Below are positions 1 through 5,867 of a DNA stretch of 64,000 nucleotides, piece after piece. The translations under genes were made by a program, and so were the position numbers. Every line of letters begins with the position of its first letter. Position 1 is the stretch's first letter. The stretch comes from Thermodesulfobacteriota bacterium (GTDB lineage: Bacteria; Desulfobacterota_D; UBA1144; Nemesobacterales; Mycalebacteriaceae), in assembly GCA_965205855.1 (NCBI GenBank), contig OZ242184.1, positions 704,001 through 768,000 on the forward strand. Reading direction: 5' to 3'. The notes below the pieces were generated by a model. The model worked only from the letters and a program-made list of their open reading frames with translations, was not told the DNA's origin and did no database searches.

Positions 1-7
1 CGGACTT
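1..7 (-). other. Probable truncated second dif/att site (outer part of XerC arm AAGTCCG...)
   Basis: Window starts CGGACTT, matching CGGACAT at 5861-5867 (6/7) in the same orientation, directly after the last phage stop codon. The remainder lies outside the window. Confidence 0.6.
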
Positions 8-13
8 TGTCAA
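8..13 (-). promoter_or_regulatory. Perfect -35 hexamer TTGACA abutting the left att arm
   Basis: Minus strand reads ...GGGA-TTGACA-AAGTCCG at the window edge. Confidence 0.5.
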
Positions 14-189
14 TCCCTTTTTTTTCCATTCTCTTTTTCACTCTCTTTTTTCCATTCTCTGGCGAGTGCTCTAATGATCGCTTTGATGACCGCTTTCGTA
101 ATTCTGAAAATGCCCCATCCTACGAGGATTATTATGCCTACGTATAATACGAGTGTAATTATCTCAATAGGGTTTTGGTTGTTCTCCAT
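10..189 (-). CDS. 59-aa single-pass membrane protein, candidate lysis protein (not in ORF track)
   Basis: My translation: MENNQNPIEIITLVLYVGIIILVGWGIFRITKAVIKAIIRALAREWKKESEKENGKKRD*. ATG directly follows the H stop (TAA-ATG). TM helix, basic amphipathic helix and charged tail. Confidence 0.75.
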   Translation of the reverse strand: MENNQNPIEIITLVLYVGIIILVGWGIFRITKAVIKAIIRALAREWKKESEKENGKKRD

Positions 190-777
190 TTAATTTTTTT
201 TATTAAAACCTTTCCAAAACTTTTTTTGTTTCTTTAGTTGATTTGTATTGTGGTTCTTTATTTTTTTTGTACCCATACTGATTAGGTCTACCCATGTTAG
301 AGGATCATGAAGGGCTCCCCTGAGTTGTTTATGGGACGTCATTTTATCCAACCCCTTGATGTTTATACCTAAGCTGTCTGCTATTGCTTGAGCTGCTCCT
401 GGATTTCCGCTGTTAAATGTGTCTGTTACTATTTTGGTTAGTTGAGCTTCTTTGTTTAGCTCTGCTTGATACCGTTGTGTTTTTGCTTGCATGGCAGTGT
501 TAGCGATTTGGCTCATATTCTGCAATTTTTGCATTTTGAATTGATTTCTGATTTCTGCTCCCGATGTATTTGCCTGTGTTTGTCCTGCGATTGACTGCCC
601 GCTTGCTCCTGTTCCTGCCCAGTCCCAAGGTGATAATCCTGTTTGTTTAGGACCTTCCTCGTAGAATTTTTTCCATTCTCCTCCTGTTGGAGCTTTTGGA
701 CGTTTAGGTTTTGACAGGATATTTCCTATGATTCCGCCTCCGGCGCTTACAAGCGCTGCTGTTAATGGGTCAGCCAT
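190..777 (-). CDS. DNA pilot protein (H/VP2-like)
   Basis: Ala/Gly-rich hydrophobic N-terminus (LTAALVSAGGGIIGNIL) and Gln-rich coiled-coil middle. TAATG coupling to Rep. Confidence 0.75.
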   Translation of the reverse strand: MADPLTAALVSAGGGIIGNILSKPKRPKAPTGGEWKKFYEEGPKQTGLSPWDWAGTGASGQSIAGQTQANTSGAEIRNQFKMQKLQNMSQIANTAMQAKTQRYQAELNKEAQLTKIVTDTFNSGNPGAAQAIADSLGINIKGLDKMTSHKQLRGALHDPLTWVDLISMGTKKIKNHNTNQLKKQKKFWKGFNKKN

Positions 778-2138
778 TACATATATGTCCTATATTCATG
801 TGAGTTATTTTGCTTCATCCAATCCTCCGGCGGCGGTATTGCTATTTCGCTGGCATATCTGTCTCCGAGTTTTTTCACAGTATTAAAGTACCTCTCCCTT
901 TGTTGGCTGTTTTCTGATAAGTATCGTTGTACCGTTATTGAGTCTTTCTTTAAGGTCCTGCAATTTTTGCATCTTTTCAATTCGTTCCGTTTCTGCATTC
1001 TCTCCGCTCTTCTCATTATCCAGTCGTCCGACATCCCAACCATATTCTGTTTGAATTTCATTTGCAAATTCATTAAGTTCAGCGTTTTTCTGCTGGGTAG
1101 CGATACGCTCCAGTTCTTCGCGCTCCATTCTCTCCCATTCGCTGGCAAATTCGCCAGTTTCTCCAGCAGGTTCTTTCCCAGTCCCTGGCTTGTTATTGTT
1201 CGGGTTAATTTTTTCGTTTTCCTTTTGTTTTTCCATTCTGATGCCTCCTCTTTGGTGCTGTATTTTAATAGGTATCTCGTACATTTTTCAAGTGTTTTGA
1301 GCGGTTCTCTTTCTCGTCCGTAATACATTACTGCTCTTCCTTCCGGCGTTTTCTTTTCTTTCTTTTTCACTTCAGTGGGGAATACCCACTGACACTTATT
1401 TTTCCAGACGTCTCCCATGAACCTTATAGGCTGGCATGAAGTCCATCCCCATTTCCATAAGTTTCCCACGGCGGCGATTTCTCTTTTGTTTCCGGGTCTG
1501 CCTCGGTTTGGATCCCGCTTCCATTTTTCCGGAATCTCTTCCGCGATGATAATAGCGTGTATGTGTCCGTGGTCGTTTTTCTTTCCGTGTTCCGTTGTTT
1601 TGATATATGTCACTCCCTTCCAAGCATCTCTGTTTTTCCTTTCTACGCCTGCCGCGCTTGCGCACTCTCTTTTGAAGGCTTTGATAAATTTGCTCCATTC
1701 CTTTGAGCCTGCTCCAAAAGCCTTTTCATTATGATATGGAGTTGAGGTTAGTGTAAGAAACATCATATAAGCCTGCGTGTTATCATTCATAGCCTTTTGC
1801 GTCTGTAAGTAGTGTTTTCTTTTTCTTGCTTCTCTGTTGTGTTGATTCAGCAGTTCCCAATGTGGATTTATAGGTTGGTTTTCTCTTTTTTCCAGTTCAA
1901 GTCCTATCATTTCAAGTGCTTTATTTAGAGTTGGTATTCCGACTTGTTTAATAGTAAAGTTAGTTTCCCCCTTTAAGGCATATTTTTTTAGATCTTGTAT
2001 CAGGTTCGTGTTTTCCGCTGTTTGGTATTCATCGTTCACGATTTCATTTAGATGTCCCGCATAGCGGTGGTATTCTATTTTTTCTACAAGTTTTTTTGCT
2101 TGCCACCGTTTAAGTGCGGGTCCTCCGGCGGCAAGCAT
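777..2138 (-). CDS. Rolling-circle replication initiator (phiX174 gene A-like HUH endonuclease)
   Basis: Motif I FLTLT, motif II HGHIHAII, motif III YLLKY (two Tyr). DPNRGR...WKWGW...WVFP parallels phiX A DPNFGR...WPYGY...WLWP. Confidence 0.93.
   Translation of the reverse strand: MLAAGGPALKRWQAKKLVEKIEYHRYAGHLNEIVNDEYQTAENTNLIQDLKKYALKGETNFTIKQVGIPTLNKALEMIGLELEKRENQPINPHWELLNQHNREARKRKHYLQTQKAMNDNTQAYMMFLTLTSTPYHNEKAFGAGSKEWSKFIKAFKRECASAAGVERKNRDAWKGVTYIKTTEHGKKNDHGHIHAIIIAEEIPEKWKRDPNRGRPGNKREIAAVGNLWKWGWTSCQPIRFMGDVWKNKCQWVFPTEVKKKEKKTPEGRAVMYYGREREPLKTLEKCTRYLLKYSTKEEASEWKNKRKTKKLTRTITSQGLGKNLLEKLANLPANGREWSAKNWSVSLPSRKTLNLMNLQMKFKQNMVGMSDDWIMRRAERMQKRNELKRCKNCRTLKKDSITVQRYLSENSQQRERYFNTVKKLGDRYASEIAIPPPEDWMKQNNSHEYRTYM
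883..1236 (-). CDS. Overprinted internal scaffolding protein (gene B-like), 117 aa
   Basis: GAGGAGG 7 nt before ATG 1236. The ATG lies in the Rep E-W codons (EASEWKNK), the register where phiX B starts in AKEWNN. Acidic, helical, similar size to B. Confidence 0.8.
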   Translation of the reverse strand: MEKQKENEKINPNNNKPGTGKEPAGETGEFASEWERMEREELERIATQQKNAELNEFANEIQTEYGWDVGRLDNEKSGENAETERIEKMQKLQDLKERLNNGTTILIRKQPTKGEVL

Positions 2139-2224
2139 TATCTCTCTGGCTGTGAACTGCCCGATTGAGTCTATTTCTGCCGTTTTAATCCTACTTACCC
2201 CCTTGGTCGTTTTGTTTTCGTGTC

Positions 2225-5258: not shown

Positions 5259-5279
5259 AGTCTGCGTCCTCCACTTTTT

Positions 5280-5483
5280 TTACTGTGTCTCTTTCTCTTC
5301 ATTTGGATCCACTCCTTTTTTTATTTTGACTTCTCCGAGTTTGATAGTTCCGAGCTCGGTTTCAGTCTCTAATTTTGCGGCGCTCACATAGCACCCAGCT
5401 AGGTTGATGCCCAAAAGCCCGGCTAGGGCTCCAATGAACGCCTTTTGTATGTATTTGTTGCCTATGATTTTTTTAAATTTCAT
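5280..5483 (-). CDS. Small phage lipoprotein (67 aa)
   Basis: Basic n-region, hydrophobic h-region and LAGC lipobox. GGAGG RBS and ATGA overlap with the upstream ORF. Confidence 0.75.
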   Translation of the reverse strand: MKFKKIIGNKYIQKAFIGALAGLLGINLAGCYVSAAKLETETELGTIKLGEVKIKKGVDPNEEKETQ

Positions 5484-5821
5484 TTTGCCTCCTTGTAGAA
5501 CGTAATGTTTTGCCGATGTAGAAGTTTTTCGATTTGCTTTTTGACCAGTCGAGGAAGCCTCCAGAGTCTCAAGCCTACATAGCGACTACTGCCTGATATT
5601 TTGACATTCCAGCCGTGATACATAACGTCTTCTTTTTTGTTAAGTCCATAATCATAAGCATCCTGTATGGTAAAGTCGTTGTAGTATTCTTTGTTGTGCA
5701 TAATTTTAGTAACTTTATTACCTTCCATCTCAACACCAGTGATTGGGTAGTATAGTTTTCTTTGCTCAACCGTTCCGAGAGGGTACTGGAACTCAAAATT
5801 TGTTTGTATTTCTTCCATCAT
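5480..5821 (-). CDS. Phage hypothetical protein (~113 aa), first gene after att
   Basis: GGAGG-aaagg-ATGATG at 5821/5818. The ORF-track ATG at 5848 lies inside the dif XerD arm. Confidence 0.7.
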   Translation of the reverse strand: MMEEIQTNFEFQYPLGTVEQRKLYYPITGVEMEGNKVTKIMHNKEYYNDFTIQDAYDYGLNKKEDVMYHGWNVKISGSSRYVGLRLWRLPRLVKKQIEKLLHRQNITFYKEAK

Positions 5822-5839
5822 CCTTTCCTCCGTTTGTAA

Positions 5840-5867
5840 AGTTAACATAATATAACTTATCGGACAT
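5840..5867 (-). other. dif-type XerC/XerD recombination site (prophage att)
   Basis: ATGTCCGATAA-GTTATA-TTATGTTAACT: 11-6-11 layout. XerD arm matches E. coli TTATGTTAAAT at 10/11. Confidence 0.92.

Follow-up and report, generated by a model that had tools for sequence, protein, structure and literature searches.

How could a microvirus related to phiX174, with no recognisable integrase, come to lie in the chromosome of a bacterium that is not an enterobacterium? This question was raised by the left end of a 64,000-nt stretch of a Thermodesulfobacteriota bacterium genome (assembly GCA_965205855.1, contig OZ242184.1), hereafter the window, which corresponds to genome contig positions 704001-768000. 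The genome is a single contig of 1,401,274 bp with 49.7% GC and is 98% complete. The original prediction, made from the letters without database searches, described window positions 1-5867 as a temperate two-scaffold microvirus of Bullavirinae type integrated at dif. Our analysis indicates that the element is very probably an intact temperate microvirus encoding an external scaffolding protein (D), a 5,860-nt unit integrated through Xer recombination at the host dif site and belonging to a deep, rearranged lineage. Sequence to the left of the window was included in a region named L001, in which each coordinate equals the window position plus 8000.

Extent of the element and its dif-type ends

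The microvirus genome, 5,860 nt in length, occupied the minus strand between a point 22 nt left of the window and window position 5868. Window positions 1-5868 had a GC fraction of approximately 0.38-0.46 and a plus-strand AT skew of approximately -0.4, in sharp contrast to the surroundings. The AT skew started within 500 nt of the window start and stopped near 5,800, i.e., at the element boundaries, and the coding strand of the element contained 41% A and 17.7% T. All long open reading frames (ORFs) at window 10-5848 were on the minus strand, open and tightly packed, with 1-nt overlaps. The features on which the argument depends were as follows.

Window -22 to 8 (L001 7979-8008), no strand: attL, left dif-type site, 30-nt repeat AAGTTAACATAATATAACTTACCGGACTTT
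777-2138, minus strand: Rep A, HUH rolling-circle initiator, 453 aa (phrog_713, PF23343)
2225-2713, minus strand: D, external scaffolding protein homologue, 162 aa (phrog_1386, PDB, hhalign)
3597-5258, minus strand: F, major capsid protein, 553 aa (Pfam Phage_F, phrog_514, PDB G4 F)
5839-5868 (L001 13839-13868), no strand: attR, right dif-type site, 30-nt repeat AAGTTAACATAATATAACTTATCGGACATT

A repeat search identified the 30-nt direct repeat at both element ends with a start-to-start spacing of 5,860 nt. The 20-nt core of the repeat was present in only two copies in the 1.4-Mb genome, both at the element ends. Therefore, the dif site that had been reported at one end was confirmed at 5840-5867, but it is one of a flanking pair whose second member lies 5,860 nt away at the other end, and this spacing sets the length of the element.

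The 28-nt dif-type site at 5840-5867 was identical to the dif site of E. coli BW25113 at 19 of 28 positions (10/11 in one arm, 4/6 in the centre and 5/11 in the other arm), and the left site at 18 of 28. The arm that matches E. coli dif well is taken here as the XerD arm and the less similar one as the XerC arm, following the E. coli naming. The E. coli dif sequence was read from the RefSeq record, in which it adjoins hipA and the coordinates of PMC7062461 are mirrored.

Both flanking sites were directly observed to be hybrids. attL was composed of the host flank, a host-type first arm and the centre, followed by a phage-derived XerC-side arm, whereas in attR the flank and arm of the phage side preceded the XerC-side arm and the flank of the host. 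In the dif-like site attributed to the phage, one arm and the 6-bp centre were the same as in the host dif, and the other arm (XerC by the naming adopted above) differed at 2 of 11 positions. The second arm of attL, TTACCGGACTT, was found in none of five sites from genomes of the same genus, whereas the attR arm, TTATCGGACAT, was the same as the native site in four of the five congeners and 1 nt off in the fifth. As read from these sequences, the exchange of arms between attL and attR is the pattern expected of a crossover within a 21-nt shared core between the chromosomal dif site and a dif-like site of the phage.

Chromosomal target site and host recombinases

The uninterrupted target was directly observed in all five congeneric genomes, where recF, one dif-type site and a HIT-family gene followed in the same order with no phage. 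The flanking genes were 67-80% (recF) and 77-86% (HIT-family gene) identical to those of the host, and the congener sites read (A/T/G)(A/T)AAGTT(A/G)ACATAA / (T/G)ATA(A/C/T)C / TTATC(G/A)GACATT. The recF gene of the host was located at L001 6782-7927, left of the window and beside dif, approximately 635 kb from dnaA, an arrangement also present in 5/5 congeners.

The dnaA gene was at 68 kb, and the cumulative coding-strand bias had its minimum at 67.7 kb, followed by a plateau and by mostly minus-strand coding past approximately 704 kb. The position of dnaA and this bias thus place the dif site in the terminus region, approximately 60 kb from the antipode of dnaA.

Three tyrosine recombinases were encoded in the genome, at 303, 389 and 915 kb, all far from the phage. 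Both host Xer genes were observed directly. XerD at 915 kb matched TIGR02225 with 341 bits, above the cut-off, and the XerC-like protein at 389 kb matched TIGR02224 with 298 bits, under the equivalog cut-off and over the subfamily cut-off. An integron integrase was also found at approximately 302,964-303,944 (L004 1456-2436), with 428.6 bits against TIGR02249 (cut-off 265).

Among the 10 phage ORFs, no integrase or repressor family was matched in Pfam, PHROG or NCBIfam, in agreement with the original description of the element as lacking both. The features of an integrative element exploiting Xer (IMEX) were present: the element had no recombinase of its own and was inserted at the chromosomal dif between a dif and a dif-like site. 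Integration would presumably have been carried out by host XerC/XerD.

Homology of F, Rep A and D

The three core phage proteins were directly recognisable as homologues of phiX-group proteins, as had been proposed. The major capsid protein F matched Pfam Phage_F with an E-value of 1.6e-17 (63.9 bits against a cut-off of 25) and phrog_514 with 9.3e-26. Among solved structures, the best match was G4 F (4.4e-16), and phiX174 F (approximately 1e-12) and SpV4 VP1 (1.1e-11) were also matched. Residues 2-101 and 279-401 of F aligned with residues 9-109 and 173-293 of G4 F, so F has approximately 110 extra residues between positions of approximately 100 and 280.

Rep A matched phrog_713 with an E-value of 5.9e-20 and Pfam REP_ORF2-G2P (PF23343) with 4.4e-8. 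The residues H192 and H194 of the HUH motif, Y273, Y289 and K292 were invariant in an eight-sequence alignment of the window A protein with those of G4, alpha3, PG19, two pequenoviruses and two Ciona viruses. Two hallmarks of microviruses (Microviridae / Petitvirales) were thus present: a capsid protein of the F/VP1 type and an HUH Rep (A/VP4) with its catalytic His and Tyr motifs.

D at 2225-2713 matched phrog_1386 ("head morphogenesis") with an E-value of 1.9e-10. Its top PDB matches were phiX174 protein D, in register from 35-110 to 35-110, at an E-value of 0.036. A profile-against-profile comparison with hhalign, in which D and its 70% identical sister protein P0153 were set against D of phiX174, PG19, Ciona and pequenovirus, gave a probability of 97% and an E-value of 1.1e-10 over 120 columns. 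In tblastn, D matched a pequenovirus protein at 3e-6 and annotated external scaffolding or scaffold proteins at 2e-3 and 7e-3. On this profile evidence, D is a homologue of the phiX-group external scaffold.

Junction contigs and a second phage form

Read evidence was taken from Logan contigs of public sequencing runs. Runs X1 and X2 belong to the same study with different samples, and run X4 has a different study and organism label and is independent; the best run may be the source sample and in that case is not independent. Contigs that spanned the attL junction with 0 differences had lengths of 20,188 nt (X1), 10,128 nt (X2) and 521 nt (X4).

Joined phage ends were also directly observed. 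A 410-nt contig present in X1 and X2 opened with the final 9 nt at the right end of the phage, CCGTTTGTA, and crossed the dif-like site to reach the left end of the phage; it was then divergent for approximately 280 nt and rejoined L001 at 8341, with 5 differences. The joined ends could be those of a circle or of a tandem copy, between which these contigs do not discriminate. Microviruses have small circular ssDNA genomes of approximately 4-7 kb, with which the 5,860-nt unit and the joined ends may be compared.

In X1, the depth was 315-328 in the host flanks, 301-306 in reference-specific phage pieces, 251-260 in variant pieces and 541 in the shared 4.76-kb core. The core depth compared with that of the host points to extra phage copies, and the values are read as one integrated copy per chromosome plus approximately 0.75 copy of a second form. 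This second form, present in X1 and X2, had the same 4.76-kb core, other cassettes on both sides of dif and joined ends. The replaced left segment (L001 8023-8341, window 23-341) covered orf59 and the C-terminal end of the H candidate, and the replaced right segment (L001 13143-13517, window 5143-5517) covered the N-terminal end of F and the orf67 lipoprotein.

A contig in X4 matched rightwards from L001 8022 (window 22), with 82 unlike letters before it. This breakpoint is the point at which the X1/X2 variant diverges, so that modules may meet there, immediately within the dif-site arm contributed by the phage.

Placement of the capsid protein

F had one close relative in a word-indexed search, the sister protein P0002, with 56% identity overall. 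Residues 101-200 of F were the least conserved against P0002 (8/50 and 18/40 identical). No relatives were found in viral contigs scanned with F or in genome contigs scanned with the F alignment. When 1.84 billion representatives were searched, 255 proteins, mostly of 410-470 aa, were matched at E-values up to 0.001; only the query itself fell under 1e-30, and the next protein, at 9.9e-21, was 33% identical over part of its length. F was 18-23% identical to 36 non-sister hits, and in tblastn the maximum identity was 35.7% and the maximum coverage of F was 33%. These values fall short of the family-level protein sharing (identity of 30% or more across 80% or more of the protein) given in the text consulted from Kirchberger et al. 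(2022, PMC9239249) for Suborder I / Family 1. Judged in this way, the lineage would rank as a family of its own.

A quick maximum-likelihood tree of F was built with 71 rows: the window F, the sister, 57 of the best-matching representatives (400 aa or longer), 8 references that encode D, 3 gokushoviruses and Tortoise microvirus 32. Rows of less than 400 aa among P0003-P0061 were left out. The window F and its sister fell inside a 64-row clade with a Shimodaira-Hasegawa-like approximate likelihood ratio test (SH-aLRT) support of 100, on a branch of 2.75 substitutions per site. This clade holds phiX174, G4, alpha3, PG19, both pequenoviruses and both Ciona viruses and stood apart from the 4 gokushovirus-type outgroup rows and 3 other hits. 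Bullavirinae and PG19 formed their own clade (99) elsewhere within the 64 rows, without the window F.

The gene order also differed from that of relatives. It was F-G?-orf80-D-A(+2 ORF)-H?-orf59-dif-orf113-orf67 here, whereas seven of the eight fetched D-encoding relatives had A(B)-D-(J)-F-G-H on a circle and the eighth, MH572489, differed from them only in having no annotated H. Together, as judged from the tree, the gene order and the length of F, this is a deep, long-branch, rearranged lineage with an enlarged F within the D-encoding clade, which Kirchberger et al. (2022) treat as Suborder I. The designation "Bullavirinae-type" was thus not upheld, given the different gene order, an F of 553 aa versus approximately 426 aa, and a position in the F tree away from Bullavirinae and PG19.

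Other reading frames of the phage

The remaining ORFs were assigned with less certainty and are listed below.

10-189, minus strand: orf59, one hydrophobic helix and a basic tail (ORF list), mostly within the segment replaced in the second form
190-777, minus strand: H/VP2-like DNA pilot candidate, 195 aa (hhalign)
883-1284, minus strand: overprinted ORF, 133 aa, in the +2 frame of A within its C-terminal third, candidate internal scaffold by position only
2706-2948, minus strand, ATG at 2948: orf80, coiled-coil, ending RGYLYND (ORF list), immediately upstream of D, alternative internal-scaffold candidate or C-like protein candidate
2953-3597, minus strand: G-position ORF, orphan, 214 aa, positioned directly after F
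5280-5483, minus strand: orf67, small predicted lipoprotein with a signal peptide ending LAGC, within the segment replaced in the second form
5480-5848, minus strand: orf122, likelier 113 aa (orf113), with ATGATG at 5821 after GGAGG; the longer reading starts inside the dif site

The 195-aa product of 190-777 combined a hydrophobic, Gly-rich N-terminal end with a coiled middle part rich in Q. It matched no family in Pfam, PHROG or NCBIfam; against four pilot proteins, hhalign gave a probability of 59% and an E-value of 9e-5, and its SPWDWAG aligned with the invariant W/G motif of H. These values support the earlier assignment weakly, and 190-777 may encode the pilot protein H.

The overprinted ORF had 134 open codons, a length reached in 9 of 2000 codon shuffles. 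The same test revealed no unusual alternative frame in F or D or in either frame of the G-position ORF, and gave p = 0.03 for frame +1 of H. From coordinates, its frame (+2) and location in A were those of B in phiX174, G4, alpha3 and PG19. An overprinted B homologue had been claimed; the assignment draws on the position, the frame and the unusual length of this open frame. orf80 gave an hhalign probability of 0.3% against B and matched no Pfam, PHROG or NCBIfam family. Accordingly, of the two scaffolds originally proposed, D stands and the internal scaffold is without sequence support. No standalone J-like small basic gene was found in the element, where the only further candidates were overprinted ORFs, which do not count as evidence, and folding of the A-D intergenic strand showed nothing notable (z = -0.99).

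The G-position ORF matched only itself in 5.8 billion proteins. Its AlphaFold2 (AF2) model from the single sequence had a predicted local distance difference test (pLDDT) score of 28.7, too low for use, and its Atlas features resembled those of small jelly-roll coat proteins (0.91), with recognition below threshold, which serves as a lead only. A receptor-binding role would fit its position.

orf59 had no family match at an E-value below 0.001 in Pfam or PHROG and is a candidate lysis or membrane protein. orf67 matched phrog_14979, a family with no assigned function, at 9.5e-4, and its LAGC fits the lipobox consensus. Both orf59 and orf67 might act in lysis or exclusion. orf113/122 had no match in Pfam, PHROG or NCBIfam and no usable Atlas hit.

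Proposed mechanism and alternative explanations

In the proposed mechanism, the phage would encode, besides F, Rep A and D, a probable pilot protein and five further proteins that are small or orphans. In its double-stranded replicative form, a dif-like site would lie in the gap of approximately 45 nt between orf59 and orf113. Host XerC/XerD would recombine this site with the chromosomal dif at the terminus, between recF and the HIT-family gene, and the phage would be left between two complete hybrid dif sites, so that integration should be reversible. Excision as a circle and production of virions would be expected to follow.

Several results weigh against an intact Xer-integrated temperate microvirus. 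The Pfam gpD match of D was at an E-value of 0.0014, under its cut-off, and the AF2 model of D from a two-sequence alignment was poor (pLDDT 50.1). The overprinted ORF showed no similarity to B proteins (hhalign probability 0.3%), and the G-position ORF gave a probability of 1.3% against four G-position proteins. The F tree was made by a quick method with the best hits of the query as rows, a very long query branch and 4 outgroup rows. Cumulative GC skew showed no clean terminus, and for this reason dnaA and the coding-strand bias were used. No single public contig bridged attR by the 31-letter rule; the contigs that continue into the host start one letter too late, 30 nt ahead of the host arm, and attR was therefore not counted as bridged. 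Nor did the runs list an empty-site joint, and the integrated copy was thus not seen to excise. The contig with joined ends belongs to the variant form and may derive from a tandem copy. Finally, a relative of F was found in 0 of 60 other genomes of the genus and order, and Pfam Phage_F was matched in 1 of 120 genomes of the phylum, which was the window's own (0 of the 119 others); thus there is no second lysogen for comparison.

The missing empty-site joint, the single occurrence (0/60 relatives) and the unrecognisable G, B and J functions would all suit a decaying or domesticated prophage, which was integrated once by Xer and no longer excises or makes particles. However, all ORFs were open and tightly packed with 1-nt overlaps, the catalytic residues of Rep A were intact, and both flanking sites were complete. 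F and D were 56% and 70% conserved against their sister proteins, with the variation concentrated in one loop, and in X1 phage DNA reached approximately 1.7 times the depth of the host, with a joined-ends junction also present. We therefore regard a decaying prophage as improbable.

Integration could also have been performed by the HUH Rep of the phage, with the dif-like repeat being incidental, since A is intact and belongs to the HUH endonucleases, enzymes able to join DNA ends. This is highly unlikely: the target was the conserved dif of the genus, the crossover fell within the 21-nt shared core with exchange of arms, no duplication resembling a Rep nick site was seen, and the Xer route has been proven for another microvirus, as described in the text consulted from PMC7062461.

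A chimeric assembly, in which a free microvirus contig was stitched into the chromosome at a shared AT-rich word, is scarcely credible even though microvirus contigs in binned metagenome-assembled genomes (MAGs) are called error-prone in the consulted part of PMC9239249 and attR was unbridged by any one public contig, because independent contigs from two studies crossed attL with 0 differences, the element lies 704 kb inside one contig of 1.4 Mb, it is bordered by precisely the hybrid dif sites expected of recombination, the interrupted spacer is intact in 5/5 congeners, and the reference-specific phage depth in X1 (301-306) equals that of the host (315-328).

The original prediction had named a lack of reads across the phage-host junction as evidence of such a chimera; attL was bridged in X1, X2 and X4, and the empty site was found in 5/5 congeners. 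Its central proposal, an intact D-encoding microvirus at dif without an integrase in a non-enterobacterial host, agrees with the open ORFs and with the isoleucyl-tRNA synthetase (IleRS) identities described below.

Host of the phage

The best named relative of the host IleRS was that of a "Ca. Dadabacteria" MAG, with 55% identity; all others were at most 44%, and Blochmannia was 31%, in a comparison of one gene with pattern-limited sampling, in which one neighbouring gene was syntenic at 37%. These identities indicate that the host is not an enterobacterium, and any phylum name drawn from them is tentative. Host genes in the window included those for pyruvate dehydrogenase E1/E2, aconitase, succinate dehydrogenase, MetH and DnaK. 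Two matches to Omp85/BamA were found in the host genome, and LpxC, LpxB and Kdo transferase were not found in this 98%-complete single-contig genome. The host may thus be a diderm without lipid A. A 1,163-aa ORF at window 53344-56835 (plus strand) had no NCBIfam match at E-values up to 1e-10.

Comparison with known systems

Lysogeny through Xer and dif has reportedly been proposed for Bacteroidetes microvirus proviruses. For the enterogokushovirus EC6098, dif/XerCD lysogeny without an integrase and with coexisting circles was shown experimentally, according to the consulted part of Kirchberger and Ochman (2020, PMC7062461). EC6098 resembles the phage described here in lacking an integrase and in carrying its dif-like motif in a short non-coding gap. 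Its prophage lies between a bacterial-type and a phage-type dif, and its circular DNA coexists with the prophage, which may be compared with the joined ends found here. EC6098 differs in being a gokushovirus of 4.3-4.7 kb without D in an enterobacterial host. In the same text, the phage motif of EC6098 varies mostly in the spacer and XerD arm, whereas here the spacer and one arm are those of the host and the other arm differs.

In the part of Kirchberger et al. (2022, PMC9239249) drawn on here, Suborder I/Family 1 is defined by the spike and the external scaffold and includes "Klebsiella prophages" and pequenovirus MAGs; the same text describes single microvirus contigs in binned MAGs as error-prone. 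The "Klebsiella prophages" are likewise prophages in the D-encoding suborder, a likeness drawn from their description only, and unlike the present phage they have an enterobacterial host. Because they belong to the same Family 1/Suborder I, the statement that D-encoding microviruses are strictly lytic, on which the original prediction relied, is dated.

Outside enterobacteria and vibrios, D-encoding phiX174 relatives are almost only host-less metagenomic circles in the consulted sections of PMC6116155 and PMC9239249. No description of a D-encoding microvirus at dif outside enterobacteria was found in the literature searched, and the supplement of PMC9239249 could hold one.

The best tblastn matches for F and D were the pequenoviruses KP087957 and KP087950 (Eel River basin) and the Ciona gut viruses MH572489 and MH572352. 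Like the present phage, these viruses have a D homologue, and they share its large F clade; according to the text consulted from PMC6116155, metagenomes are the main source of pequenoviruses and other environmental microviruses that encode D. Their F proteins were 19-23% identical in alignment to the window F and had approximately 423-428 aa, compared with 553 aa here. Their gene order was A-D-F-G-H, compared with F-G?-orf80-D-A-H? here, and, unlike here, they have no known host or integration. With a simple pattern search, no dif-like inner palindrome was found in seven of the eight fetched D-encoding relatives. In KP087957, the non-coding gap that precedes F contained an inner palindrome, ATAA-N6-TTAT, at positions 2569-2596, which was too weak for a dif-like call.

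Bullavirinae (phiX174, G4 and alpha3) and Vibrio phage vB_VpaM_PG19 have F, A and D homologous to those found here and also contain a long ORF overprinted in the +2 frame in the last third of A. However, B, C, E, J, K and G were not recognisable in the present phage, and neither the Bullavirinae gene order A(A*,B,K)-C-D(E)-J-F-G-H nor an F of approximately 426 aa applied to it. Unlike Bullavirinae and PG19, the present phage was integrated, in a host that is neither an enterobacterium nor a vibrio.

Biological significance

Prophages in the D-encoding clade and dif/Xer lysogeny in gokushoviruses were already known; a new host phylum and a divergent, rearranged lineage are added here. Beyond this, the locus may represent an active Xer-exploiting lysogen and a new family-level D-encoding lineage in an aerobic, streamlined diderm host of a small non-proteobacterial phylum, apparently without lipid A synthesis, in which two co-resident forms with the same core suggest Xer/dif shuffling of accessory (lysis/exclusion) modules between microviruses. 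This wider reading is tentative, a possibility that we would not yet favour over its negation.

The locus would tie a D-encoding, otherwise host-less lineage to a specific host genome and to a mode of persistence. It would extend dif/Xer lysogeny, proven for gokushoviruses in the text consulted from PMC7062461, to the external-scaffold clade in a distant host. The question is also raised of what a relative of the phiX group would bind on this host, whose genome yielded no match for LpxC, LpxB or Kdo transferase. The very divergent D/F pair provides material on the evolution of the two-scaffold assembly pathway. Furthermore, the integrated copy, the joined-ends form and the variant cassettes may together offer a natural system for the entry and exit of integrase-less ssDNA phages.

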